64,000 bases of DNA, from the NCBI GenBank assembly GCA_001787405.1, contig MFWV01000003.1, forward strand, positions 64,790-128,789, written 5' to 3'. How positions within the stretch are numbered: position 1 is the stretch's first letter; the number at the start of each line of letters is the position of its first letter. The translations under genes were made by a program, and so were the position numbers. This DNA is from Candidatus Pacebacteria bacterium RIFOXYA1_FULL_38_18. GTDB lineage: Bacteria > Patescibacteriota > Microgenomatia > UBA1400 > PJMF01. Of this stretch, positions 5,047 to 29,805 are shown in pieces. Under the pieces are notes generated by a model. It was not told the DNA's origin. It was given only the letters and a program-made list of their open reading frames with translations, and ran no database searches.

Positions 5047-5067
5047 TTTTTTGCCAAGATTTTTGTT

Positions 5068-12267: not shown

Positions 12268-12315
12268 TGCCCCCGCCCCCTCTCCACCACCCCAAATAAT
12301 TTTTCAAACCCCAAG

Positions 12316-12343
12316 TCGAAAATCCCCCAAACTTCGGTATAAT
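12316..12343 (+). promoter_or_regulatory. Putative promoter for tRNA-Asn (TCGAAA-16nt-TATAAT)
   Basis: Perfect TATAAT at 12338-12343, 12 nt upstream of the tRNA 5' end; weak -35. Confidence 0.35.
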
Positions 12344-12355
12344 ATGGAAATCAGA

Positions 12356-12430
12356 TCCCCTGTAGCTCAATGGCAGAGCAGGAAGCTGTTAACTTCAAGG
12401 TTGTAGGTTCGAGTCCTACCGGGGGAGCCA
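12356..12430 (+). tRNA. tRNA-Asn (anticodon GTT), CCA encoded
   Basis: Manual cloverleaf: acceptor TCCCCTG/CGGGGGA, D-arm TAGCTCAATGGCAGAGCA, anticodon loop CTGTTAA, T-arm GTAGG-TTCGAGT-CCTAC, discriminator G then CCA. Confidence 0.85.
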
Positions 12431-14005: not shown

Positions 14006-14050
14006 AATAATTGTTTCAGCAACACAACATAAAGAAATAACCAGGGAATA

Positions 14051-14653
14051 TCAAGTTGAGTGTTCATCTTTGTTCCAAATTCGCTTTTCATAAAAATCTT
14101 TAATTGTCTGATCAATTGCTCTACCCAGTTCACTTTCTTCTGGCGTAGGTGGCTTCTGTTCGTCCTCGTTAATTTTCTGGACGATTTCTTGTTTGCTTAT
14201 GCTTTCACCGCCTTCTATTCGCATCATTTCCCATAATGCCTTTAACTCTGGGACTGAGGCGGGTTCACCTGAGCGCATTTGTTTTCTTAAGGTTTGTAGT
14301 TTGTCCCAAAACACTTCGGAAATAATATGGAGTCGTTTCTGTCGTATTTGGCTCGTCTTCTTTTTAAGAATTTCCACATCCTCGCTAAGTTTCAAGTCAG
14401 CTCGTTCTACCCAACGATACTGCGATGACCAGCGTTCCAATGTTCTTTCTGAAGGTAATCTGCCAAGTTTATCCTTGAAAATCCCCGACACCTCTCCTAC
14501 AGATCCCCGCAATATTCCTTGCCAAGTTTGCATAAGTCGAGTGAGACTGTTGGTTTCGCAATAAAGTAGAAACGCCACATACTGTCGCTCCTTTTCTTTA
14601 GGCATCTTGGAAGTGATTAATACTGGTGGCTTATTTATTTGTTGTTGTTCCAT
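14051..14653 (-). CDS. Hypothetical protein (island-encoded)
   Basis: ORF-track ORF co-oriented with the recombinase; no recognisable motif. Confidence 0.4.
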   Translation of the reverse strand: MEQQQINKPPVLITSKMPKEKERQYVAFLLYCETNSLTRLMQTWQGILRGSVGEVSGIFKDKLGRLPSERTLERWSSQYRWVERADLKLSEDVEILKKKTSQIRQKRLHIISEVFWDKLQTLRKQMRSGEPASVPELKALWEMMRIEGGESISKQEIVQKINEDEQKPPTPEESELGRAIDQTIKDFYEKRIWNKDEHST

Positions 14654-14867
14654 CTTGTTCTAACCTTTTATTAATAAATCGATCAATGCTTCTGGTAGCG
14701 CGTTGTCGAATTGTCGCGGGTAACGACTCGTTCTCAACTTGGTCAAGGTATTTTTCGAAAGTTACTGACTCTTTCTCACCACAAATGGATCTTACGGATC
14801 GCCTTAACAATGTCGATATCATCTGTTTTCTTTTCTGCTTGGTTAATATTGTTTGTTGTTTCATGGG

Positions 14868-15221
14868 TTATTTGTTTTTTGGCGTGGGTTTGCCAATATT
14901 TTTATAAACTTCTTCCCTAAATTTCTTCCATTTTTCTGGCGACATTGGTTTATATTCAGGTTCAGTTGCCCGCATGGGCAGTGCCTTTGCGTCTTTGAGA
15001 AATCTTCGTTCCCGATAAAACTCGGTAATATAGGGAATAGAGATAGCAAAAGTCTCAAAGACAATCGCTCCTCGTTCACCCTTTGCCAGTGCCTCCTGCA
15101 CTAACCGAGCTTGGTTTTTAGACAGGTAGTATCTGCCTTTGCTGGTAAGAATGACTACCCAGAGTTCCTCGTAGTCATCATCATTTAATATTTCTGGCAT
15201 CGATGCCTCGTTTACTGACAT
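14868..15221 (-). CDS. Hypothetical protein (island-encoded)
   Basis: ORF-track ORF 14868..15284; start trimmed to an internal Met to reduce overlap with the upstream gene. Confidence 0.3.
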   Translation of the reverse strand: MSVNEASMPEILNDDDYEELWVVILTSKGRYYLSKNQARLVQEALAKGERGAIVFETFAISIPYITEFYRERRFLKDAKALPMRATEPEYKPMSPEKWKKFREEVYKNIGKPTPKNK

Positions 15222-15921
15222 GTTCATTCGCCTCCTTTCTAATTTGTAATGCGTCTCGTTTGACGAAATTGCGTAAAGCTGCAAAGTAATCGGAATAGTC
15301 TTTACCAGTCGATTGGCAATAGTTCATCAGGTCATCATATTTACTGGTTACGAAGGGAAGAGGCACACCATATCGTTGGGCTATATCTGTAAACTCCGCT
15401 TCACCAAGGCTCTCCAAGGTGGAATATTTACCTTTAAGAGAAACTAAACCCTTCTCTTTATGTATTTCTCTTTTATTATGTGTAACCTTTAGATGTGACT
15501 CCTTAAGGGGCAATGGTTGCCCCTGGCTCTGCTCTTTTTTGCCCATGGATACTCCAGGTGCAAAATTTGCACTTGGTTGTTTCCAGTGGGATTTATCTAG
15601 AAGAAAGTAAGTGTTATTGAGCCATTGACCCCCTTTATTGCGAACTTTTTCCCGTCTGATAATATTCCACTGTTCAAGTAATTTAATTTTGCTTTTTACC
15701 GTCCTTACCCCAATTCCATGTTCTCTGGCGATAGTCACCTGGCTCGGGAAAGCTGATTGCTCTTTATCGGCGTGACGACATAAAGACACATACACCGCCA
15801 GCGCAGATGGTTTTAGATATTTTGCCCAGCCATTCACATAGGCATCATCCATGCAGAATTTTTCCTTTATTCGTAAGTCTCTGACCCTGAATGTTCGAGT
15901 GTTTATGATTGTTTTTTGCAT
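15181..15921 (-). CDS. HTH DNA-binding protein, possible replication-initiator/DnaD-like or phage regulatory protein
   Basis: Winged-helix/HTH-like block VTIAREHGIGVRTVKSKIKLLEQWNIIRR; island context; function inferred weakly. Confidence 0.4.
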   Translation of the reverse strand: MQKTIINTRTFRVRDLRIKEKFCMDDAYVNGWAKYLKPSALAVYVSLCRHADKEQSAFPSQVTIAREHGIGVRTVKSKIKLLEQWNIIRREKVRNKGGQWLNNTYFLLDKSHWKQPSANFAPGVSMGKKEQSQGQPLPLKESHLKVTHNKREIHKEKGLVSLKGKYSTLESLGEAEFTDIAQRYGVPLPFVTSKYDDLMNYCQSTGKDYSDYFAALRNFVKRDALQIRKEANEHVSKRGIDARNIK

Positions 15922-16063
15922 ATTTGTTTTTGCTCAATTTTGACTAGCAACTCGACAAAACTTATCCAGCTGGAGCCGATTTCGTAAACTTCCTCCAGGC
16001 TTAACTTTGCTCCGTAGTCTTCTTCCAATATCTGCTTTAGCTCTAGGACCAACTTATGACTGA

Positions 16064-16351
16064 TCATGTTTGATCCTCCGAGTAGAGACGGGACTTTATT
16101 GTCCGCAACTGATTAAAATAAGTTTGTGGGGATACGGTGAGTTCGTTACGAAAATACGCCTCAACTAGCTCGTTGAGTTGTTTATTTTTTTTGAAGACAA
16201 AAACCGCTTTACGAGGATTGGACTTATTGATTTCCTCGATTGGTTGCCATAAGGATAAAGCGGTGGCAATGGCGAGATCGCTTGTGAGATAGTAATCGGT
16301 GTTTAATTCTTGCTGTTTCATAGTGATAGTCATTCGGTTGGTGACTATCAA
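16064..16351 (-). CDS. Hypothetical small protein (island-encoded)
   Basis: ORF-track ORF co-oriented in the island. Confidence 0.3.
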   Translation of the reverse strand: MIVTNRMTITMKQQELNTDYYLTSDLAIATALSLWQPIEEINKSNPRKAVFVFKKNKQLNELVEAYFRNELTVSPQTYFNQLRTIKSRLYSEDQT

Positions 16352-16428
16352 GATTGTTAAACAAACAGCAAACTACCGCCACGGATTCTTTTACGACTTT
16401 TTTACGATCCTTTTGCGATGAAGGGAAT

Positions 16429-17082
16429 TTATGGACGAAGTAGCTTGTAGCCCACATTTCTCTTGGAGATAATCATATCTTCAATTTCATCTTTGGTCAT
16501 ACCCGCATCTTCTAAAATAGGAACGATGTTTCTTCTTATATACTGAACGGCTACAGCGATCTCTTTGGAATCAGACGATGCTCGACAATTCAAATCGAGT
16601 TTATCAGCTATTTCCCCATATCTGACAATTTGATCACTTTCCACAAGGAGAATTAAATACCTTATTTCATCCTGGGTGGGCGAGATCTCTACTGGTTTAT
16701 TGCCTTTATACTGCATGACCCCTTTTAGTAGATCGATTTTTAGTTCTCTCCACACATATACTCCCTCTGTCTTTTCAGGTTGAGTATCCTTGCCTCCAAC
16801 CGCCAATTTTTCTCGGTCAACCATTATTTTAACTGTCTCGCCCGCGAACCTTCCCAGCTTGTTTAAACAAGATATATCAATTACTTGCACTAGATGCTTT
16901 TCCTCAAGTGTCCTTAACATCTTTTTTAAGTCGTCTTTGGGAATTAAGTCGCCATTTTTATCTCTAAAATTCCAAAGAGTGATAGCAATCGCCTCGTCCG
17001 ACTCTGGAGATATTTCGACCTTTTTTTGAATAATATCCACCACTAAGCGTAGTGGCTCTGGTAATGCCATTATCATAGTCAT
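16429..17082 (-). CDS. Hypothetical protein (island-encoded)
   Basis: ORF-track ORF, 217 aa, co-oriented with the regulatory module. Confidence 0.4.
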   Translation of the reverse strand: MTMIMALPEPLRLVVDIIQKKVEISPESDEAIAITLWNFRDKNGDLIPKDDLKKMLRTLEEKHLVQVIDISCLNKLGRFAGETVKIMVDREKLAVGGKDTQPEKTEGVYVWRELKIDLLKGVMQYKGNKPVEISPTQDEIRYLILLVESDQIVRYGEIADKLDLNCRASSDSKEIAVAVQYIRRNIVPILEDAGMTKDEIEDMIISKRNVGYKLLRP

Positions 17083-17155
17083 ATTTATATTTGGGTATAA
17101 AAATACCCACTCTTATTTTACTAAAAGTGGGTCAGATAACCTAGGGAAGTTTGTT

Positions 17156-17428
17156 CTAGAACTCAAACAGGTCTTTGACCTTTATACTCAAACCTCTGGC
17201 AATTTTGATCAAATACCTTACTGAGGTATTCACATACCCATTCTCGATCTTCGCCAGATACGAGACATTACTTGCAGCTTTATCAGCAAGATCTTCTTGC
17301 GTCATCTTTTTCTGCTCACGAATTCGTTTGATAGTTTTACCCAATACCTCTCTTTCACGCAGGAATGGATTATTTTGTGCATATCCTCTCATGCTCACAG
17401 TATTTCCATATTTGGAAACATTTACCAT
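17156..17428 (-). CDS. XRE-family HTH transcriptional regulator (phage cI/Cro-like repressor)
   Basis: Canonical XRE HTH: LGKTIKRIREQKKMTQEDLADKAASNVSYLAKIENG. Confidence 0.8.
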   Translation of the reverse strand: MVNVSKYGNTVSMRGYAQNNPFLREREVLGKTIKRIREQKKMTQEDLADKAASNVSYLAKIENGYVNTSVRYLIKIARGLSIKVKDLFEF

Positions 17429-17478
17429 TCCATATATGGCAAGATTGTGCTAAAATTAGCCTGGTAGCCAACTAAAAC

Positions 17479-17508
17479 TTGACATTGAGATGGAAAGGAA
17501 GCTAATAT
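17479..17508 (+). promoter_or_regulatory. Putative promoter (TTGACA-18nt-TAATAT) in the divergent region between the XRE repressor and the + strand gene
   Basis: TTGACA 17479-17484, TAATAT 17503-17508; followed by AAGGAGG RBS before ATG 17548. Confidence 0.4.
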
Positions 17509-17547
17509 CTCAGAATCTTTTACAGTTAGCGCATAAGGAGGATAAAA

Positions 17548-18420
17548 ATGACAATGACACATAAAAACAAATCTCGTATTCTGCCTGCTATTCTTTTCCT
17601 TGCCGTAGTTACTATTTTTGCCGTTGTATTAGCTCCTCGCTTTTTGGGTCAATCCAAAGTCGTTCAAACCCCGCAAACCAGTGCCAAAGACAAGCAAGTC
17701 ACTGAGCTTCTGGCTAAAATGAGCGAGAACCCCAATAAGGACTCTCAGGAGTATGCAGAAGCTAGACAGGAATTTTGCATCCTGACCGCACGACCAGCAG
17801 CCCAGAGAGAGAAAGCTGTAGCCAACATTAGGCAATTCCTGGGCATGACCGACATCCCAGTCGAATTCGTTTGCAGTAGGTTTAACGGTAAACCAGATGA
17901 TAGCGGAACGGACTACAATAGCCCTGCCAGCGAAACTTATGAGGCTGCACGATTTAGCTTTACAGTTGATCCAAAGACCAACTACATCGTCGAGACAGGC
18001 GAGGCAGAGCGTCGATGGGGAACGAAAGTGGATGGCACACGCTGGTTTGAAAACATGCCAGAGTATGATGACACGCCCACCTACACCACGTCAGAGGCTA
18101 TCAAGCCAGTAGCGGAAGCTTTCATGATTAAAAACAAGGATATCTTTGGAGTAGACATCACCAAAATGACCTACCAGTTCGAAGGCAGCAAGATCGGTAA
18201 CTTCTTTGTAAAGTGGATCGATAAAAGCAAACCACACACAAAGGACAGTGTGGAGTGTGGAGATGTCGACCAGAAGCGTGAAGGCGCATACAAAAACGAT
18301 CAAGGAGTATGGTGCTTAAAAAGCATCTACACCACATACCCAACAGTGAACATGACCATCATGCAGAGCGGGCAGGTGGCGGTCTACGACAATGACGGCT
18401 GGGAGATAGAGAAGCTATAA
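17548..18420 (+). CDS. Secreted/membrane-anchored hypothetical protein
   Basis: N-terminal signal/TM segment ILPAILFLAVVTIFAVVLA; strong RBS; no known motif. Confidence 0.5.
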   Translation: MTMTHKNKSRILPAILFLAVVTIFAVVLAPRFLGQSKVVQTPQTSAKDKQVTELLAKMSENPNKDSQEYAEARQEFCILTARPAAQREKAVANIRQFLGMTDIPVEFVCSRFNGKPDDSGTDYNSPASETYEAARFSFTVDPKTNYIVETGEAERRWGTKVDGTRWFENMPEYDDTPTYTTSEAIKPVAEAFMIKNKDIFGVDITKMTYQFEGSKIGNFFVKWIDKSKPHTKDSVECGDVDQKREGAYKNDQGVWCLKSIYTTYPTVNMTIMQSGQVAVYDNDGWEIEKL

Positions 18421-18699
18421 TAAAAACAGTATGAAAAAACAGTGGATTATAGTCGCCATTCTTCTAGTTATCGTTCTTATTTGGTTTCTGCTTACCGTCG
18501 ACTGTGTGGTCAATAGAACTAACTCTGGTATCCCTATCGACTGGGCTAATATCAAGGATTGTAGCTACTAACTTAAAACTTCCTCAACACATCCCCGACG
18601 AGGCTTCTGAAGCTAAATAGAGGTGGAACTATGCCATCCCAGGCATGAAAGCCTCACACAAGTCAACACACGGGGACACGAGCGTTTCCTTTCTTTCTA

Positions 18700-21600
18700 T
18701 CAAGGGGTTGTTTGCATTTGGATTTCTTTTTCTGGAGCAATTGTCCTTTTTAGATACTTTTGATCTCTTTTTTGAAAAGCGGGAAGCGTTCCCTCAAGAA
18801 CATCTAGTATTTTTTTGTTCGTAGCAGGGTTTTCTATGCTACCAGAGGTGTATCTGATTTCATAAGTGTGCTTGTCCATCTCAGAGCTAATTATTTGTTC
18901 GGCGTCGCAGACAACGGCAAGATTAGGGTTATGGGTTACTATGATGATCTGTCGTTCTTTTTTGGCTTGTTTTATGTAAGGGACTAGGAGGGTATAGACA
19001 GATTCGTTATCAAGATTTTCCTCTGGTTGGTCAATTATGAGAGGAACCTTATCCTTGTCTATCAATAAGTAAAAAATTAACAGTAATGCTCCTATCTCCC
19101 CAGGAGAAAATTCATTCTCATTTAGATCTTTACCATTGAAAGTAATGTTGTATTTAACTTCAAGGTATTTTAATCCGTAGAGGTAGTTATAAAGTTCTAA
19201 TTTTTTACCATCACTTTTTATTAGCTGATCATCCAGCAGCTTGATAGGATTTCCCTTTACTGATTTATCGACTCTGAGACATTCAATGAGCTCTTTGATA
19301 AAGTTTACAACGCCATCTTTTGTTTTCAGGTCGCTATTTGCGATAGTTTCTTTTACTCTGATTAACGCCTCGGCTTTTCCTTGAAAACTGCCGTCTCTGC
19401 TTTGATCAATAAAGGATAAAAAGTCTATGGGAAAATTAAGTTTGTCAAAAACTATCCCGACATCAAAATTAAGCACACTACCTGTTTTCCTCTGTTTTTC
19501 CTCTTTATCGCTTATGACCTTGGCAAGAGGGGCGTAGATTTCTTCATAGAAGGAAATCTTTTTTAGAAGTTCATCATAAATTTGCTCAACGGTTTGATCT
19601 CTCAGTTTCTCTGACGTTTCAATATCTTTATCTAATTTCTTCTGAACATACTCTATTTCACCAGTTAGGGACTTTATTGTCGTTAGACTAGTGTCATCAT
19701 CTACACCTTCAATCAATCCTCGTTTTGTTTGATATGTCTTCAACGCTTTTTGATATTCTCGAAAGGCGTTGTTTTCTTTGTCAAGGCTATCAACGATTGT
19801 TTTTAGATCTGCCTGTATGCCTTTTTTCTTTACGACTAGGCTTGTTTTTGCGTCTCCCTCTTCTGATAATAAAATAGTTAGGCTGTCTTTTTCCAGGTTT
19901 AGGGAAGTCTTCTTCTGTGTGATAAGAGCCTCGTCTATTTTGATGGTAATAAGCTTTTGTGGATCAATACCCAAGAAGGTTAGGTCTTCTTTATAACCAG
20001 AAAGAAAATCATCAAATTGCTTTTGTAGACTGCCTAGGGCAATTTCGAGATTTTGGACCTTTGTAATGTTTTGGTTAACACCCTTTAATACCAACTGCTT
20101 TTCCCCGATGAGCTTTTCAACCTCTTCAAAGGATTTATTAAGAGCTGAGATTTTATCTTCTACATCTTTTGAGGGCTTGCTTTTAGGTTCTGTAACTTTC
20201 TTTGGTTTGACTAAATTCTTTAGCTCCCGTTGTTTTTCCTCTAACTTACGCTTGAGCGATCCAAGATAGATAGGGAGTTTTTTATTTTCTAGTTTACATA
20301 TGGAACCGTTTTGTTCCGACACTTTCTGTTTCAAGGTTTCAACATTTCTATCAATTAGACCTGTTTTTAGCCTAATTAGGTCTTTTAAATTACTAGTGCT
20401 ATTTCGATTTTCCTCGGGAACATATGAGAAGATTACTTTGTCAATTTCCTGCTGAAAAAGCTGATTAACACCACTGCCATCGCAGATCGCCTCAACGAAC
20501 TTTTGAGGGAGATACTTCACCTGCTCGGGTTCTGTGAGATTCACTTGATCATCAAGATTTGACTTTACGGAGATCCCATCCTCCCAAGTGAGTATTGCTT
20601 CATATTGTTTTGCCAGACCTTTTTTCCTGAATTTATCATCTCTCAAAAAAGAGTAAGTATTTGAGTCAGCATGGCTTTTTCCTGCCAATGCCATAGAATC
20701 TGCTTGTGCGCTTTTACCGCTCCCTTTCTTGCCAATAATTGCCACTAAACCAGGATTGATAGGAATTTCGTTATCAAACCAAGGATTCTTTTGAGTGCTG
20801 TCTACTGGTTTCAAAGATATAGCGTTAATGTAATGAGACTTATTACTTTCGATGTCGAGTAACTTGGGTGGCATTTTACCAATGAAGATTCTATCTTCTG
20901 GTTCATTTACAACTTGTCTTAATCCCTCAAAAGTTGGGTCAGCTTTTATCCAGCAGCATCTTTCGCATGGTTGTGACTTTTCATCTCGGATTGCCCCAAT
21001 TGGATATGTGTGTTCATGAGAGTCGCTACCTTTAAGGCATGGCTTTTTGTCTTTGAACCACTCTTCAAATTTTTCCTCTTTAACCTTGTCATCTTTCCAA
21101 AGGAAGAAATCTATTTGTTTTTGATTCGATGACCCGATAAAGTGCGAATCGTTTATAAGTCCTTGCTTGAACCATTGATCATTTACTGGATCGATATTGT
21201 CAATACCGCCATACTCGTCATATGGCATCCAAATCAGGTATTTCCCTCTGAAGGTTGGGTTTGCCTCAAGTAACTCCTTTGTTCTACCAAAATCAACAGC
21301 TACATTCTCGTATAAAAACTTGCTGTCAGAATATTTACTGGAGATTTGACTTCCATTAACGATAAGTGATTTTAGGAAATTCTCTATATCTAAGATATCT
21401 ATTTCATTGCTAAAAACGATATGAAAATTTATTCGCTGACCATTTTTAGAGTTTTTGTTGAGTAGGGCGTTGGTCATCCTAAATTCAACCACTGGCAGAA
21501 CAACTTTGTTTGAGTTGGGTGCTTTGGTTGTAAACTGCTTATAGCCCTCTACAGAACAGTAATCATTGATACCCACAACATCACAATCAGATTTTTCAAT

Positions 21601-21711
21601 TTGATCAACAAATTGGTCATATGTGCCCTTGTAACTAAACGATGCAGGGCTGTGGACATGCAAGTCCCACTTGCGCCATATTGAACCTTTTGGGTCATTC
21701 GTAATTTTCAT
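18700..21711 (-). CDS. Fusion protein: N-terminal PHP-family phosphoesterase domain plus coiled-coil ABC/SMC-type (AAA_15/AAA_21-like) ATPase
   Basis: PHP motifs WDLHVHSP (aa 15-21) and GSDSHEH (aa 228-234); Walker A IIGKKGSGKS (aa 325-334, coordinates about 20710-20740); long K/E/L-rich coiled-coil; C-terminal ABC signature-like FSPGE, Walker B/D-loop LIIDQPEENLD (about 19009-19038) and H-loop IIIVTHNPNL. Confidence 0.7.
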   Translation of the reverse strand: MKITNDPKGSIWRKWDLHVHSPASFSYKGTYDQFVDQIEKSDCDVVGINDYCSVEGYKQFTTKAPNSNKVVLPVVEFRMTNALLNKNSKNGQRINFHIVFSNEIDILDIENFLKSLIVNGSQISSKYSDSKFLYENVAVDFGRTKELLEANPTFRGKYLIWMPYDEYGGIDNIDPVNDQWFKQGLINDSHFIGSSNQKQIDFFLWKDDKVKEEKFEEWFKDKKPCLKGSDSHEHTYPIGAIRDEKSQPCERCCWIKADPTFEGLRQVVNEPEDRIFIGKMPPKLLDIESNKSHYINAISLKPVDSTQKNPWFDNEIPINPGLVAIIGKKGSGKSAQADSMALAGKSHADSNTYSFLRDDKFRKKGLAKQYEAILTWEDGISVKSNLDDQVNLTEPEQVKYLPQKFVEAICDGSGVNQLFQQEIDKVIFSYVPEENRNSTSNLKDLIRLKTGLIDRNVETLKQKVSEQNGSICKLENKKLPIYLGSLKRKLEEKQRELKNLVKPKKVTEPKSKPSKDVEDKISALNKSFEEVEKLIGEKQLVLKGVNQNITKVQNLEIALGSLQKQFDDFLSGYKEDLTFLGIDPQKLITIKIDEALITQKKTSLNLEKDSLTILLSEEGDAKTSLVVKKKGIQADLKTIVDSLDKENNAFREYQKALKTYQTKRGLIEGVDDDTSLTTIKSLTGEIEYVQKKLDKDIETSEKLRDQTVEQIYDELLKKISFYEEIYAPLAKVISDKEEKQRKTGSVLNFDVGIVFDKLNFPIDFLSFIDQSRDGSFQGKAEALIRVKETIANSDLKTKDGVVNFIKELIECLRVDKSVKGNPIKLLDDQLIKSDGKKLELYNYLYGLKYLEVKYNITFNGKDLNENEFSPGEIGALLLIFYLLIDKDKVPLIIDQPEENLDNESVYTLLVPYIKQAKKERQIIIVTHNPNLAVVCDAEQIISSEMDKHTYEIRYTSGSIENPATNKKILDVLEGTLPAFQKRDQKYLKRTIAPEKEIQMQTTP

Positions 21712-21781
21712 AGTTATTGTTATTTATAAATACTGCCCTCACTTAAGGGCAGTATGGCAGAAGTTAGTCTCGAACTGCTCC

Positions 21782-24094
21782 TTATTCATCAATTTTATAA
21801 GCACTACTGATGATAGCGTCGAAACTGTTAATTCTGCTTATTGCGGTATGGGGTAGGATTTTATAGATCCACTTCTTTTTAGTTGCTCCAGAAGCAATCT
21901 TGCACCATTCTTCAGCTTGCTTGGCTTTCTCAATTACCTCTGGGTCTTTTTTGTCTAACTTGCTCTTGTCTTTTACCTCCACTAGATAATTGGCATCATC
22001 TCTTTCAACGATGAAGTCAGGGTTATAGTTGCCGTAAATATATCTAATTGGCAACTGACCAGTTCGAAGTCTTACCCAACTAATTACTGTTTTGTCTTTT
22101 TCTAAAGAGTCGGCAAGTAGCTTCTCCTGGGTTGAATCAAAAACATAAGAATTGTAGACACTCTTGTCATAGCCATCAATAATGTTTCCTCTGGCTTCTG
22201 CTTCGCTCACCTCGTCTTTATCCAATGGAACAGCGGAAGCTTTTACTACTTTCAGATAAGGTTCAAATGAAAGCTCCTCGTCAAGCACGCCAAACTTAAT
22301 CGTTGTCTGTTCTTGGAGTCGCTCCTGCAATTGAGGTAAGATATCATTCAGGATTGTCTGTTCGTGAAGCTTTACCAACTTCGACAATTCTTTATCAGTA
22401 ACCTGAAGCTGGTCAAGATAGTGCTTTACAATCTTTTGTAAAACTGCCTTGAAAGAGATGTCAAACTCGGACATTTCCATAATAATCAACCTTACGATTC
22501 GGTTGACTGGATCAATCTCTTCTTTTACTACAACCTCTCCTGCATCCTCAGTTTGTCTAGAAACAATATCGGCTTTGATTAATCTTGGCTTTATCTTCTT
22601 TAACTCCTCTAAACGCAACTTAATTGGGAAGAATTCCAATTTATTACTCGAATAAACTTTTGCTTCAACTAAAGGAACTTTAACCCAAAGTTTCTTATTA
22701 TCTGTTGGTTTAATTTCAACAGTTTTAAGTTCTTCTTTCTTCTCAGCTTTTTTAACTCCAAGCCCTTCTGCCACTTCATGGGCTACTGCCACCACTCTAG
22801 CAAAGTTATCGTGCGAGATAATGTCGAGAGAGTCCAGCTCCTCAACCCCTGTCAGTTCGCCAAATGGCAAACGCAAACCTCTCCCGATAGTTTGCTCAAT
22901 CAGAGTCTTACTGATTGAAGCCCTGAAGGGAATGATCGTATAAACATTTTTAACATCCCAACCCTCTTTTAATTTATCGACATGGATAACGATTTCATTT
23001 TTATTAACGGGATATGGTTCCTCTAGGCGGAGGAGTTGATGGATAGAATCAACCTCGCTTTCACTGGTTACCAATAGGGTTTTATCTTTGTAATAGCCAT
23101 CAAAGAAACTATCACTTTCAATAAGTGCTTTGACATCCTTAGCGTGCTGGATATTCTTTGTTGTTAAGAGGGTAATTGGTAAAACAAACGGTAATTTATT
23201 GTTTTTGCAGTATTCCTCAATAAGCACCTTTTTCTCTCGGTGTCTTCTGATCCCATCCTCAAGTTTTACCAGTTCTAGGTCACCTTTGTAGGTGTAGTCG
23301 TCACTTCTGGCAATAACATAGGGAATCTTGATGTAACCACCCTTGGCGCCATTACCAGCCACCAAGCTCTCCAAAGCCCGCTTAGAATCGTTTATGGCGT
23401 CTCCTAGGGTGTAGGAATAGACAATGTTGTCACTTATTGGGGTAGCTGTGAACTCCAGTCCCAATTCTGGTTTGAGATGGTTAATAGCCCTAATCGACTT
23501 AACTCCTCGATATCGATGACTTTCGTCCATTAAGATAACCAGATCCTTTTGTTGCAGAAGTTCTGCAAAGCTCGATCCTAATGTCTCTTGATAACGATGG
23601 AACTTAAATTCAACATCGGTTCTCTCGTTAAAGATCTTCTGGATGTTGAAAACATAAATGTTGACTGCCTCAAAAAGTTGATTACCGAAGTTAGCGTAAC
23701 TATAGTTTTCTCCAGTAATCAGGTTAAACAAGGGGAAATCAGTTAATCCATCTAGGACATACTTTTTACTCGAAGGAGTAAAGTTATCGATTGTTTTGGT
23801 ATAAATCGTTTCTCCTGGAGTCAGGATGAAAAAGTCCTTTAGCCCTTTGGTGTAATAGAGGTATGCGATCATACCCGCCATCAGTCTGGTCTTACCAACG
23901 CCTGTAGCCAGGGCAAAAGTAAAGGAGGGGAAGTCAGTGTCAAACTTTACATTACCAACCAATCTCGCTTCAATGTCCTCTAATTTATCTCTACCCAACT
24001 TAACCCCTGAAAGGATGGCATCCAATTTAACGAGTGAAAGCTGTTGTGGCTTTCTTAAGCTTAGTTCTTTTGTGATTTTATCTATTGTGTTCAT
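21782..24094 (-). CDS. res: Type III restriction enzyme, Res subunit (SF2 helicase plus PD-(D/E)xK nuclease)
   Basis: Walker A ATGVGKTRLMAG, DEAH-like ILMDESHRY, motif VI QTIGRGLRL, C-terminal PDFIVER...LVEVKDK nuclease motif; 4-nt overlap with Mod. Confidence 0.8.
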   Translation of the reverse strand: MNTIDKITKELSLRKPQQLSLVKLDAILSGVKLGRDKLEDIEARLVGNVKFDTDFPSFTFALATGVGKTRLMAGMIAYLYYTKGLKDFFILTPGETIYTKTIDNFTPSSKKYVLDGLTDFPLFNLITGENYSYANFGNQLFEAVNIYVFNIQKIFNERTDVEFKFHRYQETLGSSFAELLQQKDLVILMDESHRYRGVKSIRAINHLKPELGLEFTATPISDNIVYSYTLGDAINDSKRALESLVAGNGAKGGYIKIPYVIARSDDYTYKGDLELVKLEDGIRRHREKKVLIEEYCKNNKLPFVLPITLLTTKNIQHAKDVKALIESDSFFDGYYKDKTLLVTSESEVDSIHQLLRLEEPYPVNKNEIVIHVDKLKEGWDVKNVYTIIPFRASISKTLIEQTIGRGLRLPFGELTGVEELDSLDIISHDNFARVVAVAHEVAEGLGVKKAEKKEELKTVEIKPTDNKKLWVKVPLVEAKVYSSNKLEFFPIKLRLEELKKIKPRLIKADIVSRQTEDAGEVVVKEEIDPVNRIVRLIIMEMSEFDISFKAVLQKIVKHYLDQLQVTDKELSKLVKLHEQTILNDILPQLQERLQEQTTIKFGVLDEELSFEPYLKVVKASAVPLDKDEVSEAEARGNIIDGYDKSVYNSYVFDSTQEKLLADSLEKDKTVISWVRLRTGQLPIRYIYGNYNPDFIVERDDANYLVEVKDKSKLDKKDPEVIEKAKQAEEWCKIASGATKKKWIYKILPHTAISRINSFDAIISSAYKIDE

Positions 24095-25647
24095 ACTTTG
24101 AATTTCCTTAATAAAACATCGGGAATTTTTCTAACTTCGACATTATCAGGTAATTTTATTTTACTTGATATGGTCTTAGCATAGATAATAAGAAAATCGG
24201 CTGCATCGCCAATTTCCCGAAGGACTGCCTCTACATACTCCTGATTAAGATACTGCTCGGTGACATGAGCGATAGTTCTGCCTGAGATACCGTGGAGACC
24301 ATTGTCTGGGTGAAGAAGTCTAAATCCTTCTACCTTTAGGACTGCTCGAATAAGCGCACCGTTATAAACCTTTGGGTTGAGCACTGTTAACCTTAAATCG
24401 TCATCTTCTACAAATAAGCTATCTCCAAGCTCAAAATACTTAAATCCACCTCCACCACTCCAATCATATAATCTACTTATTCCTTCTTGGTCTTTGCCTG
24501 ATACCGCTACCTTTAGTCTTGGTATTATGTGGGTTTTAGCATGGTTACCCAATTCCACCATAATCCATTTACGATTTCGCTTATGAGCCACGGCACCTGT
24601 TGTGCCTGACCCTGCAAAAGAGTCTAAAACCCAATCACCCTCTTTAGAGGCTAGATCGATAATCCTATTAATAAGTCTTTCTGGTTTTGGAGTTGTAAAT
24701 TCGTCTTCCATATTAAAAGCCCTTATTTCTCTTTTAGCCTCCTGATTGTCTCCAACCTCTGTTCTAAACCATATCGTTTTTGCTACAGATCCTTGTTTGA
24801 CCTCAGTAAGAAAAATCTTTAAGGATGGTTTGTTCTCACCCTTTTTCCCAAACCAGATTCGATTATCTTTAATCATCTCGTTCAGTTTTTCTTTTCCATA
24901 AACCCAATGTCTGTTATTGCTTGGTAGAAACTTTTTGCCTGCAGGACTTGTGATTTCATACTGTCCGTAGGGGAAGGGGTCTTTTGCAGTCAAATCTGCA
25001 TTTTTCCAAACACCTCTTGGATCATTATCTGGATTTTTATATCGGGCGTTCATTTCTTCTGTTCTTGACAATAGGTTAGGTCTCCAGATGTCTTTATTTT
25101 TGGCGTAAGCAAGAATATGATCGTGACTATCTGATAGCCATTTTGCATCGTTTTGTGGCGAGTATTTTTTCTCCCAAATTACATTTGAAATAAAGTTTTT
25201 TCTACCAAAGACTTCATCACATAAAACTTTCAAGTAATGACACTCATCATCGTCAATTGAAATCCAAATACTCCCATCTTTGCTTAGTAGTTTGTAGAGC
25301 GCTTCTAGTCTCGTTTTCATCAATCCTAGCCAAAGAGAATGCTCCATGCCGTCATCGTAATGCGAGAAAGCATTACCAGTGTTATAGGGAGGATCAATAT
25401 AAATCAGTTTTATTTTGTTTCTAAAATCTTGAAGAAGCGATTGAAGGGCAAGCAGATTATCACCCTTGATAAGCATATTCTCTGTATCTTTGTCCCCAAA
25501 AGTCTCTTTCTGGAGTGAAATTCTCGGCTCTGTTACTCTGGGGTCTTTCTTATCCACCCATTCATAATTACCCGTATCGACATCGTAATAAAGGCTCTTA
25601 CTCTTATTTGCCCAGTTTAATTCTAATTTATTGTCATTTTTAGTCAT
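24091..25647 (-). CDS. mod: Type III restriction-modification DNA methyltransferase, Mod subunit (N6-adenine/N4-cytosine, beta class)
   Basis: Motif IV IYIDPPYN precedes motif I FAGSGTTG (beta-class order); lies directly upstream of and overlapping Res. Confidence 0.8.
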   Translation of the reverse strand: MTKNDNKLELNWANKSKSLYYDVDTGNYEWVDKKDPRVTEPRISLQKETFGDKDTENMLIKGDNLLALQSLLQDFRNKIKLIYIDPPYNTGNAFSHYDDGMEHSLWLGLMKTRLEALYKLLSKDGSIWISIDDDECHYLKVLCDEVFGRKNFISNVIWEKKYSPQNDAKWLSDSHDHILAYAKNKDIWRPNLLSRTEEMNARYKNPDNDPRGVWKNADLTAKDPFPYGQYEITSPAGKKFLPSNNRHWVYGKEKLNEMIKDNRIWFGKKGENKPSLKIFLTEVKQGSVAKTIWFRTEVGDNQEAKREIRAFNMEDEFTTPKPERLINRIIDLASKEGDWVLDSFAGSGTTGAVAHKRNRKWIMVELGNHAKTHIIPRLKVAVSGKDQEGISRLYDWSGGGGFKYFELGDSLFVEDDDLRLTVLNPKVYNGALIRAVLKVEGFRLLHPDNGLHGISGRTIAHVTEQYLNQEYVEAVLREIGDAADFLIIYAKTISSKIKLPDNVEVRKIPDVLLRKFKV

Positions 25648-25649
25648 AT

Positions 25650-25841
25650 TTATTTTTTCTTGTTCTTCAAAATAACCTCAAGGTCTTTAGGATCGTAACG
25701 CCTGTCTCCACGCTCATTTACTATGATAGCCTTTAACTTACCACTTTTGTCCCATCTCCTTAATGTTTCGACATGGACATTGATAATTTCGGCTGCCTGT
25801 CGAATTGTCAATAGTTTTGGTAATTTATTGTTTTTATCCAT
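25650..25841 (-). CDS. Small HTH DNA-binding protein (excisionase/MerR-like; candidate controller or recombination directionality factor)
   Basis: 63 aa; LLTIRQAAEIINVHVETLRRWDKSGKL is an excisionase-type HTH; 2-nt gaps to both neighbours. Confidence 0.55.
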   Translation of the reverse strand: MDKNNKLPKLLTIRQAAEIINVHVETLRRWDKSGKLKAIIVNERGDRRYDPKDLEVILKNKKK

Positions 25842-25843
25842 AG

Positions 25844-27652
25844 TTAGTGTTGGCTATTCAGCCTATTTGCAAGCATCTCTTGCTCATCATATAACGGCTT
25901 ATCTTGATCAATCATCCTCTGTTCAGCGGCACTTAACCATTGGTTAGACTCCATTTTAGACGCAATAGCTGAAATGTTAGCAATTCTTATTGAAATTATC
26001 TCGTTGATTCTATCGACATCGCCTTTGTTCTTCTGGTAAAAGTTAGCGTTATTTTTAAGATCCGCCCAACTTGGTTGAATTTCTCTTAGCTTTGATAGGC
26101 TGGTTTTCCAAGACTCTGTATCCTCTTTCTTGTAGTTAGGGGGGATGTAGCCAGCTGCATGAACAACAATAAGCTGTGTGGGGCATCCATTCAAACTTCC
26201 TTGGACTTCTCCAATACCAATATCATCAAACTTTTTATCAGACCATGTATTTTTAGCATCTGTAGAATCTCTTTCGAGATAGTCCTCAATCAACTCATCA
26301 GCGGTGTAGTAACCTTCTAGCGACCATTCCCAAACATAACTATTCCAATAACCAGCCTTTGACATTGCGCTTGAAACTACATCAAAAGAAGCCTCTTGTT
26401 GAATAGTATTGTTCTTTAAAAGATATTCGCCTCGTATTTTGGCTGATACATCAAGTTTCGGTTCGTATTTTACTGGTGTTGCTCCATTTTCCTTGCGTTT
26501 TTCATTAAGCAATTCAACAAACCTATTTCTGTCAATTATTGGCTTTACTGTATCTGACAAGTCATTCGTTGCATCATGCCAATTTTTATCAAGTTTGCCC
26601 TTCTGTTTTTCCAGGGGTAAAACAAGACGGATATCTTTAATGGAAGCAAAACCGATCTCTCTTGAATCGGAACTGCCTTTTCTATTGTCTCCCATAGCAA
26701 AGACCGCATCTTGTGGAACCGTAATCACCTGGCACTCTTTAAGAAACTTCTCGCCGAATGTCGAGCGTGGTTTGGCAATATAAGGTTCTTTTTGTGGTTC
26801 TCCATTGAGATAGACAATACCATCCCTAAGTTCTATTGTGTCTCCTGGTAAGCCAATAATTCTTTTTAATAAACCTGCAGGATTACCACCATCTCTGCTC
26901 GTTAGCTCTCTTGTAGTATCATTTTCCCAGGTAAGAATGTCGCCTCTACCTAGTGTGTGTCCTAAAAATCTTCTTCCATTTATCACAATTCCGTTTGGGT
27001 AAGGTAAAAAGCCCGCCGTTGATATAATCTCTTTTGCCAATTCCTTGTTGCTTTTGCCTTTTGTGCCTTTCTCCCAAGTCGGATACATTGAGCCTGTCCC
27101 CACAATATTTATGTCTTCAGTGATATACCCCAGCTGACTAGCAGCTAAAGCTCCAACCGTTACATATCCACCAATCCAAATAGGCAAGATAATAACTCCA
27201 ACCGCTATAAGCGTAGTGACCCTGACTAATATTGGTTTGAGACGAAATGATTTAAATAAGCTCTTGATGCCGTCATGTTTTAGTCTTTTGACAAACTCAA
27301 GTGGTTTGAGGATATAAATAAACAAATACAAGGGCAGGATAGCGAGGATGAAGAACAGTTTAATGAGAAAAATAAAGATATTTTGTCTCTTATGAGACCT
27401 CTTAGCTATTAGTTGTGCTGTAAAGCTAGTTATTCCAATCAAGAAAGCGAAACTTCCTAGAAGGACGAGACCAAGAAGCGAGAAAGCAAAAACATCGGGT
27501 GCTTTGTCGAACATCTCTTTTCTTATGCCAACGACATACCCCATGATGGAGAAGACGCCAACAATACATCCTACCCAGACTATGGCTGATACTTTAATAA
27601 TCCAGTTAAGGACTTTTTCTTTGTTTAGTTTTAACGACATTTTTCTCCGCAT
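25844..27652 (-). CDS. Signal peptidase I (S26)-like protein fused to an N-terminal polytopic membrane domain and a C-terminal extra domain
   Basis: About 6 N-terminal TM helices; S26 boxes GTGSMYPT (Ser nucleophile), LPGDTIELRDGIVYLNGEP and GDNRKGSSDSR; C-terminal 270 aa of unknown function. Confidence 0.65.
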   Translation of the reverse strand: MRRKMSLKLNKEKVLNWIIKVSAIVWVGCIVGVFSIMGYVVGIRKEMFDKAPDVFAFSLLGLVLLGSFAFLIGITSFTAQLIAKRSHKRQNIFIFLIKLFFILAILPLYLFIYILKPLEFVKRLKHDGIKSLFKSFRLKPILVRVTTLIAVGVIILPIWIGGYVTVGALAASQLGYITEDINIVGTGSMYPTWEKGTKGKSNKELAKEIISTAGFLPYPNGIVINGRRFLGHTLGRGDILTWENDTTRELTSRDGGNPAGLLKRIIGLPGDTIELRDGIVYLNGEPQKEPYIAKPRSTFGEKFLKECQVITVPQDAVFAMGDNRKGSSDSREIGFASIKDIRLVLPLEKQKGKLDKNWHDATNDLSDTVKPIIDRNRFVELLNEKRKENGATPVKYEPKLDVSAKIRGEYLLKNNTIQQEASFDVVSSAMSKAGYWNSYVWEWSLEGYYTADELIEDYLERDSTDAKNTWSDKKFDDIGIGEVQGSLNGCPTQLIVVHAAGYIPPNYKKEDTESWKTSLSKLREIQPSWADLKNNANFYQKNKGDVDRINEIISIRIANISAIASKMESNQWLSAAEQRMIDQDKPLYDEQEMLANRLNSQH

Positions 27653-27703
27653 ACCTCAACTTAATTATACAAAAATAAAAGGAAAAAAGGTATACTTGAA
27701 ACG

Positions 27704-28630
27704 ATGAAAAAACCCATAGCCTCATGGCGATATTTATTCAAATTACCAGTCAATATCTTTAATAATGAAATGGTTGGCTATGAAATTAACCCCCTGCCAT
27801 ATTCCGATCAGGGTAAGGTAGTAATCTTTGCTGGTAAAAGTGACCAAACGGAGGACCAGGGCATCGTTTATATTTACCTTGAGCTTCTAAAGGAGTTGAG
27901 TCAGGGCAATAACTTTGCTAATTTACAGCGATTACTGAATTTAATTTATATGGAAACTGGTTTGCCTACGCATCCATTTCCTGTGCAGATTGATGAAGGT
28001 GAAACTGCCGATCAAGTAATTTCAAGGTTTATGTCAAAAACCTTTTATTATCCAGACAGAAGTTACAGTGGAACAGCTTCGCAGCCAAACCATATTGCCA
28101 GGGTTCAATCGTGTGTGAGTCTTATAAGCAGACTAAATAAAAAGAATTTTAATAAGTTTGACAATGCCTTGAATACCTATGTTTGGGCTTTAGAGTTGAT
28201 GGAATTACCAAATCCCCACCTGAAATATACTCTTTATATGACGCTATTTTTGTCTTCAATTGAACAACTGGTTGATATACCTGCTACCTGTAAACATAAA
28301 CCTTTCCCTGTTTGTGAAGGTTGCGGGAAGGAGTTTGCCAATCACCATCCAAAAGGAAAAGGAGTCAGACAGGCTTTTGAGGATTTTATTCGAGAAATGT
28401 TGACTGGAAGCGGAGTAGATGATGCAGTTGAAAGAGTTAACCGTTTACACCAAAAGTTAAGATCGTCATTCTTACACAGCGGCACGCTTTCTGGCGCAGA
28501 GAAAGTTGGTGGCTTCTTAACTGATGGCACGAACGACACCACTCTAATCGTGGAAGATATGATGAACACCTTGATTTTGAACAGACAGTTATTAGAACAG
28601 TTCTTGCTAAAAAGGCAAATTAAACTATGA
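27704..28630 (+). CDS. Hypothetical protein with Cys-rich zinc-ribbon-like motif
   Basis: [16 protein letters not shown]; 4-nt overlap with the downstream gene. Confidence 0.4.
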
Positions 28631-29805
28631 AAATTGGACGCAATGACCCATGCCCCTGTGGTAGTGGTAAAAAATATAAAAGATGTTGTTTGGTCAAACC
28701 TAGATTAATACCTAATGTTACTGAGGTAACTCCAACTCCTGAACTTGAATCATTGAGAGATCAAATTAACTTAGAAAATGAAGAGAGAAGAAAAAAGTAT
28801 CTAGAACCTCAGGGTATTTATATTGATTTTGTGAAGCCGATGATTTATCAGGGAAGGAAATTTTGGGCTTTAGGTAGTCGTCTATATTATGAGAGACCGC
28901 CCGACGAGACCTTCCATGAGTTCATTATCTTCGTTTTGTGTCAAACGCTCGGAGAAGAGTGGCGACGACAACAAATAGCTTTACCTGAAGAACAACAACA
29001 CTTTGCTTATAAGTGTTACAAGAAATATAACGAATGGCGAAAGAAAAATCATACTCTCAATAATCAACAAGGTGAGGTTTGGGCTGCCTTGCCCGATGGA
29101 TGGACAAGAGCCTTTCTTGCCTTAGCCTTTGATGTTTGTAGCTTAATCCATAAAGACTATCTGTCGGATAAACTATTAAATCGCTTAAGGAATAAGGATC
29201 AATATCAAGGAGCTCGTTATGAGGTGGCAATTATGGCAATGTTTGCTCGGTTGGGTTATAAAATCACTCCATTGGATGATACCGATATTAAAACAACACA
29301 CCCCGAATTTATTGCAGAAGACTTAGTTAATGGAGAGAAGATTGCAGTTGAAGTAAAAAGTAAGCAACGAGAGGGTGTTATTCATACTCCTGGTAGTGTA
29401 AGCGATCCAGCCCAACTATTATGGGGAGATGTGTCTAGGTTATATAGACACGCTATGAAACAAAATCCTGGCAACATCCCTTTTCTGGTTTTTATTGATA
29501 TGAATTCCCCACAGACTCCTGGTATTGCATGGCAAGACAAGCCTTGGGTCAAAGATATTAAGAAGATGATGACAAAATCTCCTTTACATAATCCACAAAA
29601 TCCAGATCCTTGTAGTGGACTTATGTTTACAAATTACTCCTACCATTATCAGACTGAAGACGAGGCTAAGAGTGGTGAACACCTACAGACGATACCCCTT
29701 CATCCTATCCATCGCATACAAAGAGGAGATTTCTTTGAAAGACTGGGTAAAGCCTTGGCTAGTTATGGGAATATTCCCAATCTCGATATTGAGGTGGGAA
29801 AATGA
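28627..29805 (+). CDS. SEC-C motif domain protein of unknown function
   Basis: N-terminal [17 protein letters not shown] matches the SEC-C zinc-binding motif; remainder unrecognised. Confidence 0.5.

Follow-up and report, generated by a model that had tools for sequence, protein, structure and literature searches.

Are the five co-oriented genes at positions 18700-27652 of a 64,000-nt stretch of the Candidatus Pacebacteria bacterium RIFOXYA1_FULL_38_18 genome (contig MFWV01000003.1, positions 64,790 to 128,789; the window) the parts of one composite defence system, or a row of neighbours that met by chance of insertion? They encode a signal peptidase I (SPase), a small helix-turn-helix (HTH) protein, the Mod and Res proteins of a Type III restriction-modification (R-M) system, and a TrlF-family protein. 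An earlier note on this DNA had read them as a tightly coupled operon, in which the outer genes might be functionally tied to the R-M system. The comparison with related loci argues for a mosaic of four independent co-oriented units, i.e., the host SPase gene, the cargo slot of an integrative element with its HTH gene, a Type III R-M cassette, and the TrlF-family gene, and we give this reading a probability of about 70%. A serine-integrase element of ~13.4 kb would start right after the SPase stop codon, inserted before a convergent tRNA-Asn gene; a small MerR/HTH_17 gene would lead its slot, a block of ~100 nt and a 290-aa membrane-anchored protein would form the distal bounds, and the slot would here hold a complete Type III R-M cassette with the TrlF-family gene behind it.

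Five genes that come apart in relatives

The cluster comprises the following features, the five genes being taken from the list of open reading frames (ORFs).
25844-27652, minus strand: SPase gene (602 aa)
25650-25841, minus strand: HTH gene (63 aa)
24091-25647, minus strand: mod (518 aa)
21782-24094, minus strand: res (770 aa)
18700-21711, minus strand: TrlF-family gene (1003 aa)
21755-21730, minus strand: hairpin in the gap between res and the TrlF-family gene (fold -21.3 kcal/mol, z = -3.4)
21722-25683, minus strand: mod-res cassette of 3.96 kb (mod, res, and hairpin), inserted into a backbone shared with the related locus L174 (blastn)
27653-27703, minus strand: intergenic region upstream of SPase, with an extended -10-like TGTATAAT at 27671-27664 and GAGG at 27657-27654, both recognised by eye

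The sizes, the common orientation, and the junctions of the five ORFs are exactly those of the earlier note. Inspection of the sequence showed 2-nt gaps between SPase and HTH (TAA-CT-ATG) and between HTH and mod (TAA-AT-ATG), a 4-nt overlap that places the res start on the mod stop (ATGA), and a 70-nt gap between res and the TrlF-family gene. The domain assignments proposed for the five proteins were also correct according to Pfam and PADLOC, the motifs of all five are intact, and the serine integrase that had been placed in the same island was found at 12416-14005, so that the cluster is a defence locus within an integrase-bearing island. What did not hold is the unity of the five genes as a single composite defence module, because SPase, HTH, mod-res, and TrlF occur apart in relatives.

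The 602-aa protein matches Pfam Peptidase_S26 (84 bits) and exceeds the family cutoff of 47 bits of the NCBIfam model sigpep_I_bact (TIGR02227) with 87.5 bits. It consists of four N-terminal transmembrane (TM) segments predicted by hydropathy, the catalytic domain, and a conserved C-terminal extension of ~250 aa; the SPase I boxes GTGSM (S188), KR (K263), and GDNRKGSxDSR (here GDNRKGSSDSR) are invariant in the alignment, and the Ser/Lys dyad is intact. The protein is 100% identical to the 'signal peptidase I' of a Candidatus Pacebacteria metagenome-assembled genome (MAG), a protein search returned hundreds of homologues with 54-94% identity across Microgenomates/Patescibacteria, and a scan of one genome per species detected relatives in at least 438 species genomes. 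A Bacteroidetes origin with SusC/D-like genes, which the ORF sizes had hinted at, was dropped because the protein search pointed to the candidate phyla radiation. The best 80 of these 438 relatives correspond to 79 distinct loci, each on a separate genome record, i.e., one locus per genome. Calling and clustering of ORFs revealed highly varied neighbours across the loci, with the HTH gene present in 16 of 82 SPase-carrying loci, and PADLOC gave no match for the 602-aa protein. Judged by these comparisons, the gene appears to be the lineage's housekeeping signal peptidase I, a host gene that flanks the element and not a defence accessory. The role of an R-M accessory factor that had been suggested for it is not borne out by a single-copy SPase that mostly lacks an R-M system behind it.

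The end of the SPase gene is also the point where relatives part. In three HTH-less relatives with 75-86% nucleotide identity (L027, L014, and L015; L-numbers denote loci fetched from relatives), homology reaches precisely as far as the SPase stop codon, window position 25845, and in the HTH-bearing loci homology to the window continues past this stop through the HTH gene. Where the HTH gene lies directly behind SPase, it is separated by 1-2 nt or a short overlap, and its product is 71-98% identical despite the differing cargos. The SPase stop codon is TAA in all 11 HTH-bearing loci examined and TAG in HTH-less loci with the same SQH C terminus. The distance from the HTH gene to the first cargo gene is 0-2 nt in every variant.

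Locus L174 provides the internal boundaries of the cluster. It aligns in blastn searches to window positions 27686-25684 and then jumps to 21721-16060, and window 25683-21722 is therefore an inserted cassette. The proteins of L174 are 94% (SPase), 90% (HTH), 79% (TrlF), 90% (the 290-aa protein, P290), 89% (XRE), and 59% (integrase) identical to those of the window, and mod and res are absent. Locus L019 carries the same R-M system (Res 89%; Mod 81% over part of its length), which is followed by an unrelated 1027-aa partner. On this evidence from both sides, mod-res and TrlF are separable.

The cassette itself encodes a recognisable Type III pair. Mod matches PADLOC MTase_III over its full length (492 bits) and Pfam N6_N4_Mtase (167 bits), and the position of DPPY (85-88, within IDPPYN 84-89) N-terminal to FAGSGTT (in DSFAGSGTT, ~350) is the motif order of a beta-class N6-adenine methyltransferase, in which the TRD lies between the two motifs. 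Res matches Pfam ResIII (75 bits) and RE_endonuc (31 bits) and PADLOC REase_III (287 bits), and its motifs GVGKT, DESH, TATP, and PDF..EVK are those of a superfamily 2 (SF2) helicase-ATPase with a C-terminal PD-(D/E)xK nuclease. By analogy with known Type III systems, Mod would methylate one strand of an asymmetric site, and the Res-Mod complex would use ATP to find and cut unmodified DNA; Type III cleavage is ATP-dependent and takes two unmethylated sites in inverse orientation, with Mod as the source of hemimethylation. The order of mod before res with overlapping stop and start codons, the beta-class Mod, and the SF2 plus PD-(D/E)xK architecture of Res are shared with Type III systems of the EcoP15I/EcoP1I type. 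Unlike these models, in which Res has roughly 870-990 aa, the protein has 770 aa, and it reaches 36.7 bits against the NCBIfam Type III equivalog cutoff of 564. The small leading HTH is likewise no classical C-protein (HTH_3) and is common to unrelated cargos.

Ten cargo architectures were found behind the conserved HTH gene, and for eight of them the distal end of the slot was seen, which is marked by the ~100-nt block and/or the gene of the 290-aa protein. They include the following; the last line gives the distal edge of the slot in the window.
Window and L001: Type III Mod + Res + TrlF
L174: TrlF alone
L004-L007 and L012: TrlF (27% identical; 490 bits to the TrlF model) + Type II methyltransferase + REase_II
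L002 and L013: Res860 + Mod636 + PycTM-like + 74 aa + 1141 aa
L008 and L023: 220 aa (weak HEPN match) + Res860 + Mod606 + OLD/GajA/AriA-like ATPase
L019: 279 aa + Mod555 + Res772 + 1027-aa DUF4365 protein
L020: Res860 + 258 aa + Mod593
L175: PD-Lambda-4_A homologue
L092 (different flank, not beside SPase): HTH + 246 aa + Res862 + Mod596 + TrlF
18580-18680 of the window, no strand assigned: distal slot edge, a conserved non-coding block of ~100 nt that is 79-91% identical in L002, L004, L007, L008, L023, and L175, irrespective of the cargo

The cargo is thus exchanged in modules, and several unrelated defence cargos were found at one position between homologous flanks, the pattern that characterises a defence hotspot. 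The slot would accordingly be the defence-cargo hotspot of an integrative element of the candidate phyla radiation (CPR), as far as such a comparison of loci can tell. The HTH gene, which had been tied to the Type III R-M system in the window, is by the same comparison (71-98% identity in front of ten different cargos) a feature of the slot.

The regulation of the cluster can be narrowed down to some extent. A promoter had been placed in 27653-27703; a sigma-70 consensus scan called no minus-strand site in this region, although an extended -10 element with a GAGG behind it can be made out by eye. The scan, which covered terminators as well, was uninformative overall, since its 36 promoter-like sites compared with 28.7 +/- 5 expected are no enrichment. 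The region is a candidate promoter that could also supply the downstream cargo, and among the SPase loci the upstream homology begins 20-55 nt before the ATG. The common orientation and the lack of a called minus-strand terminator at the first three junctions make it plausible that transcription from the SPase promoter reads through into the cargo, and the units are probably co-transcribed. Tight coupling, as originally described, applies to these three junctions. The junction between res and TrlF is not tight, because its 70 nt hold a stable hairpin with a perfect 11-bp stem, which was equalled in stability by none of 200 shuffles and is followed by UUAUAAAU. In blastn, the homology with L174 resumes just beyond the hairpin, which may terminate transcription partially or mark where the R-M cassette ends on its 3' side.

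Some cargo genes deserve mention in their own right. The PycTM-like effector of L002 (16529-20711; also in L013) was recognised with 43 bits, no cyclase was detected beside it, and the genes behind it encode proteins of 74 aa and 1141 aa, the latter with only a weak HEAT-repeat match; the three genes are a possible uncharacterised defence module. In L019, the 1027-aa protein (16831-19914), which has an N-terminal DUF4365/Argonaute-associated REase-like domain, takes the place of TrlF behind the same R-M system, and a 279-aa protein without family match is encoded between HTH and mod (12000-12839). The ~100-nt block at the slot edge has the core GTGTGAGGCTTTCGTGCCTGGGGTGGCATAG...ATTTAGCTTCAGAAGCCT and an 11-bp palindrome GCTTCAGAAGC, is 73-91% conserved at this position, and also occurs away from the slot in two loci (L020 7014-7167 and L046 196-296). 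It had no Rfam match, and a structured RNA was discarded as unsupported since the weak consensus fold has zero compensatory pairs, i.e., no covariation; possible functions are an operator, a 3' untranslated region, or a boundary at which recombination or exchange takes place.

The probable integrative element between SPase and tRNA-Asn

The other end of the element and its backbone are made up of the following features.
12356-12430, plus strand: tRNA-Asn(GTT), detected with ARAGORN and Rfam (64.8 bits)
12416-14005, minus strand: large serine integrase of 529 aa with Resolvase, Recombinase, and Zn_ribbon_recom domains
14051-14653, minus strand: 200-aa protein, with relatives just before the terminase in L004
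15181-15921, minus strand: HTH_36/RepL-like protein (family call)
16064-16351, minus strand: DUF5659 protein (family call)
16429-17082, minus strand: 217-aa protein, a backbone gene
17156-17428, minus strand: XRE HTH protein (family call)
17548-18420, plus strand: 290-aa protein (P290) with one N-terminal TM segment by hydropathy, convergent with the cargo, no family match
18431-18571, plus strand: 46-aa peptide with a TM segment by hydropathy

The last 15 nt of the integrase gene overlap the 3' end of tRNA-Asn, and the same overlap is present in L009 and L078. SPase and tRNA-Asn are convergent in the window with 13.4 kb between them, and tRNA-Asn is located at most 10 kb from SPase in eight loci that were fetched with SPase. 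In L026, the SPase stop codon is followed after 2 nt by the convergent tRNA-Asn with nothing between, which is the arrangement expected of an empty site. Because homology breaks at the SPase stop and SPase and tRNA-Asn are adjacent in L026, the element probably extends over ~13.4 kb, about 12431-25843, between the two genes, with tRNA-Asn as the probable attachment (att) site and a crossover that would lie close to the two ends. The backbone genes are collinear with those of L174 and L001, and P290 relatives with 31-74% identity are found in 11 HTH-bearing loci besides that of L174.

In L004-L006, a related backbone runs on into a GpA terminase, and the element family is therefore phage-related. 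The 200-aa protein encoded upstream of the integrase shares 36% identity with the protein of L004 19905-20492, directly before the GpA terminase of these Shapirobacteria prophage-like loci. The window element contains no terminase or structural genes and may be a satellite-like or decayed prophage derivative. IMG/VR scans with SPase and with P290 returned no relatives, by which the element is not demonstrated to be viral, and an Rfam scan of 9-34 kb detected the tRNA only.

A unit of all five genes and an element that includes SPase are the two alternatives to these boundaries, and we regard the former as highly improbable. One translationally coupled system with the S26 peptidase and the PHP-ATPase as dedicated accessories of the Type III R-M system would account for the co-orientation, the junctions of 2 nt, 2 nt, and 4 nt of overlap, the lack of called minus-strand terminators at these junctions, and the tight SPase-HTH junction that recurs in at least 16 loci, but SPase is found in at least 438 genomes, mostly with no R-M behind it and with no PADLOC match, cargos that lack Type III R-M also stand behind the SPase-HTH pair (TrlF only in L174, PD-Lambda-4 in L175), and R-M exists without TrlF in L019 as does TrlF without R-M in L174 and on plasmids. 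Comparative genomics has largely refuted the five-gene composite, as far as gene content can do so, and the looser statement that TrlF tends to sit in R-M operons survives. Some observations do weigh against the mosaic as delimited here. The upstream neighbours of SPase differ even among close relatives whose SPases are 92-94% identical, SPase of L010 is flanked on both sides by a 156-nt repeat composed of the tRNA-Asn 3' end and the integrase 3' end, and the loci L010 and L011 are more complex around SPase, possibly tandem. The single empty-site example, L026, has an SPase that is only about 53% identical, an empty site in a close relative was not found, direct-repeat and mismatch searches found no tRNA-Asn 3' fragment and no direct or att repeat at the SPase side, and the putative junctions share only TGG. 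An element that starts upstream of 27652 and spreads SPase horizontally together with HTH and cargo would agree with the variable upstream neighbours, with the L010 repeat and the contiguous ends of contig L011, and with the 77-94% identity of SPases between MAGs labelled as different candidate phyla. We nevertheless judge it improbable, since the taxon labels of MAGs cannot be relied on, the 79 distinct loci kept represent one SPase per genome, close relatives lack HTH and cargo with homology ending at the stop codon, and no viral-contig relative of SPase appeared in the IMG/VR scan. The identities are moreover decoupled, with 86% for HTH and 62% for SPase in L018, and 93% for SPase and 47% for P290 in L001. 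The host SPase next to an element that begins at its stop codon is thus retained.

The structures around SPase in the sub-lineage of L010 are of interest irrespective of this decision. The direct repeat of L010 (9649-9803 and 13827-13982; 81% identical) consists of the last 9 nt of tRNA-Asn and the integrase 3' end and encloses SPase together with roughly 2 kb of further sequence. When L009 and L010 serve as the reference, one end of contig L011 (7,777 bp) continues directly into the other. These structures suggest that SPase is surrounded, in that sub-lineage, by tandem or decayed elements or belongs to a circular form, and it could sometimes travel with elements, given the L010 repeat. In L018, a 392-aa gene with a SEC-C motif (86% identical) directly abuts an SPase that is itself only 62% identical, which indicates recombination or mosaicism upstream of SPase too. 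In the upstream region of the window (27704-29805), a divergent 308-aa gene by the SPase promoter is present only in the window and L001.

The small HTH protein admits two functions. It matches Pfam MerR_1/HTH_17, which has the excisionase fold, its best match is PADLOC mad1 (44.9 bits), and it scores 26 bits with the NCBIfam model 'excise' (TIGR01764), below the cutoff of 28.8. Some large serine integrases, e.g., that of phiRv1, work with small Xis proteins of the HTH_17 type. A function as recombination directionality factor (excisionase) of the serine integrase, rather than as transcriptional regulator of the cargo, is a real possibility, albeit one that we rate below even odds: the fold and the near-cutoff TIGR01764 score, the conservation irrespective of the cargo, and the location at the end of the element away from the integrase, which would bring the two genes side by side in a circular form, speak for it. 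The best match to mad1, a homologue of regulators that is dispensable for defence in MADS, the 0-2 nt coupling to the first cargo gene in every variant, and the HTH gene of L092, which heads an R-M + TrlF block away from SPase, speak against it. MAD1 has been grouped with homologues of R-M parts and widespread regulators, and deletion of mad1 had little effect on defence (bioRxiv 10.1101/2023.03.30.534895). We thus take the HTH protein for a probable regulator of the cargo slot. Phage relatives of the protein are annotated only as MerR-like HTH or excisionase/regulator proteins. The TGG shared by the putative element junctions (window 25841-25846 and 12428-12436) is the reverse complement of the tRNA CCA end, and if the crossover took place there, the HTH start codon would be CTG in the circular attP form and become ATG only after integration.

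The TrlF-family protein and its possible ties to restriction-modification

The 1003-aa protein passes the cutoff of 350 of the NCBIfam model TrlF_fam_ATP (NF045780) with 607.7 bits, residues 8-986 corresponding to positions 1-943 of the 944-position profile. Its similarity to Ppl (96 bits with NCBIfam NF042955; 83 bits with PADLOC Ppl) is confined to the C-terminal ATPase region, and an identification as Ppl proper was rejected with 96 bits against an equivalog cutoff of 1000. Pfam detects the SMC_N/AAA_21 ATPase domain, and the N-terminal PHP domain lies below the Pfam threshold (E 0.011) and is backed by HxH/DxH motifs and fold matches. In 12 TrlF homologues with 40-100% identity, the residues of the PHP metal site (H18/H20, D50, E76, H97, and D230/H232) are invariant, as are the ABC motifs, i.e., Walker A (327-334), the signature (869-874), Walker B (894-898), and H927; a coiled coil of roughly 400 residues separates the ATPase halves. 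A profile search of the PDB with the protein returned the heads of Rad50, SMC, and AriA, and a sequence search of the same database yielded no structure of Ppl or TrlF. The AF2 model (pLDDT 76) resembles SMC, Rad50, JetC, and LmuB in Foldseek searches (E down to 4e-10), and its N terminus matches the PHP phosphoesterase 3e0f and RNase AM 9etk. More than 2700 homologues at E <= 1e-10 were counted among the candidates scored, and a literature search for 'TrlF' yielded no paper on the family, just other meanings of the name.

The protein is thus a TrlF-family fusion of a PHP domain and an SMC/Rad50-like ATPase in a sister family of Ppl, and a candidate for single-gene defence. Both proteins combine an N-terminal PHP domain and an ABC/SMC-like ATPase in a single chain of roughly 900-1000 aa, and they differ in that the present protein fails the Ppl equivalog cutoff and meets that of the TrlF family. 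Ppl is an anti-phage system of a single gene with PHP and ATPase domains (Gao et al. 2020), the mechanism of which is summarised in PMC12904381: NTPs bound to the PHP and NTPase domains inhibit it, and nucleotide depletion and 3'-OH ends activate it, the required 3'-OH ends being produced by another nuclease. By analogy with Ppl, TrlF would most likely work without partners, as a nuclease that is gated by nucleotides and acts on DNA ends, and its anti-phage role and mechanism are predicted on this basis.

Does TrlF nevertheless belong to the R-M system behind which it is encoded? The earlier note had asked whether homologues of both flanking genes recur near R-M, and the 1003-aa family does recur there, in contrast to the 602-aa SPase with its varied neighbours. 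TrlF relatives were found within Type I R-M operons of the order hsdM-hsdS-TrlF-(1-3 small genes)-hsdR (L141 4148-13858 and L133 837-12741), in the former with a 4-nt overlap with hsdS. The 49 tight (gap <=150 nt) co-oriented neighbours of TrlF are led by the Pfam families Methylase_S (6), DUF2130 (3), N6_N4_Mtase (3), ResIII (3), DEAD (3), and BrxL (2), counts that come from about 75 metagenome TrlF loci with no comparison set of other genes. Most of these loci (roughly 80% or more) have no R-M gene adjacent to TrlF, which is also solitary in all four plasmid contexts inspected (Rhizobium, Burkholderia, Vibrio, and Staphylococcus), lies at the end of an operon for a type IV secretion system in L091, and has relatives on 12 IMG/VR contigs. 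A TrlF relative lies beside a RhuM-family gene in L131 (2038-12279). The TrlF relatives of L092 (75% identical) and L093 (48%; Omnitrophica) have R-M neighbours that are only 24-35% identical to the R-M proteins of the window, and TrlF and R-M therefore do not co-evolve.

These data bear on the proposal that HTH, Mod, Res, and TrlF, with SPase excluded, form a functional composite in which TrlF cooperates with R-M, either by degrading DNA from restriction-made ends or nicks or as a back-up 'guard' when R-M is inhibited (as PrrC and PARIS). R-M genes are found beside TrlF much more frequently than expected of a gene picked at random, an excess that would fit functional cooperation and counts against four independent units. 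Three independent pairings place TrlF immediately behind Type III(-like) R-M systems that are unrelated to one another, with gaps of 70 nt in the window, 73 nt in L092, and 47 nt in L093; it precedes a Type II R-M system in L004 and is inserted into the Type I operons of L141 and L133; R-M/BREX families top its tight neighbours (Methylase_S six times, N6_N4_Mtase and ResIII three times each, BrxL twice), with HsdS as the commonest (6 of 49). The resemblance of its ATPase head to AriA and the need of Ppl for 3'-OH ends made by another nuclease (PMC12904381) point the same way. Against the composite stand the lack of co-evolution at 75% or 48% identity of TrlF with 24-35% of R-M, TrlF as the sole cargo on the same backbone in L174, the solitary genes on all four plasmids inspected, the predominance of metagenome loci (roughly 80% or more) without an adjacent R-M gene, and the strong hairpin between res and TrlF, and defence genes cluster with R-M generally, whereas the TrlF counts are without a comparison set. 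We thus consider the composite unlikely, and with it a true functional coupling of TrlF and R-M. Equally doubtful, if taken as one proposal, is the combination of two broader ideas, namely that TrlF-family nucleases are R-M-coupled effectors, repeatedly recruited into Type I, II, III, and BREX loci, which act on restriction-made ends or nicks or fire when restriction is blocked, with Mod-Res-TrlF as a two-layer system, and that the CPR element sets its cargo exactly behind a host stop codon, with the HTH ATG created from CTG at attL and a slot that is expressed only when integrated. The preferred reading accordingly keeps TrlF as a unit of its own within the slot.

PrrC lies within the Type I R-M operon of EcoprrI. 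The TrlF relatives between hsdS and hsdR in L141 and L133 are comparable to such accessory genes, unlike TrlF of the window, which is encoded after and not inside a Type III R-M system and is separated from it by a hairpin.

Comparison with known systems and other features of the window

Two further systems invite comparison. With MADS (mad1-8), the cluster shares the combination of methyltransferase and SMC-like ATPase genes in an operon headed by a small mad1-like HTH gene, and PADLOC found weak partial matches to mad3 and mad8 inside TrlF. Unlike MADS, it has only five genes, two of them a canonical Type III pair, and lacks MAD6-8 as genes. MAD6, MAD7, and MAD8 are mandatory (bioRxiv 10.1101/2023.03.30.534895), and an identity with MADS, suggested by the mad1, mad3, and mad8 matches, was ruled out by their absence.

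Defence hotspots occur in mobile elements such as P4-like satellites and prophages. The slot resembles them in its conserved flanks around interchangeable defence cargos, here R-M, OLD/Gabija-like, PD-Lambda-4, and PycTM-like genes, and differs in its CPR (Microgenomates) host, in the large serine integrase at tRNA-Asn, and in its position 1-2 nt past the stop codon of a host housekeeping gene, so that it could borrow the transcription of the latter. Type III R-M systems, PHP-SMC nucleases, and defence hotspots of mobile elements are kinds already known; the interest lies in the CPR host, the rich series of cargos, and the uncharacterised TrlF family. An apparently exotic five-gene system thereby becomes interpretable as a defence hotspot on serine-integrase elements of CPR/Microgenomates, i.e., of bacteria whose mobile elements and immunity are poorly described. 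The same backbone with ten cargos represents a set of natural swap experiments for the mining of new CPR defence genes, with the 1141-aa, 1027-aa, and 220-258-aa proteins as candidates. TrlF is a very large uncharacterised sister family of Ppl that is often found in R-M operons, and it makes the cooperation of end-directed nucleases with restriction testable.

Outside the element, the window contains two large adjacent plus-strand ORFs (1765-6810; 1093 aa and 580 aa) for which none of the fetched loci has a homologue. At 33744-33805, at the start of the ORF 33736-34245, a 21-nt repeat unit (AAACTTGGAAGCAGATCAAC-like) occurs three times in tandem with 85-100% identity.

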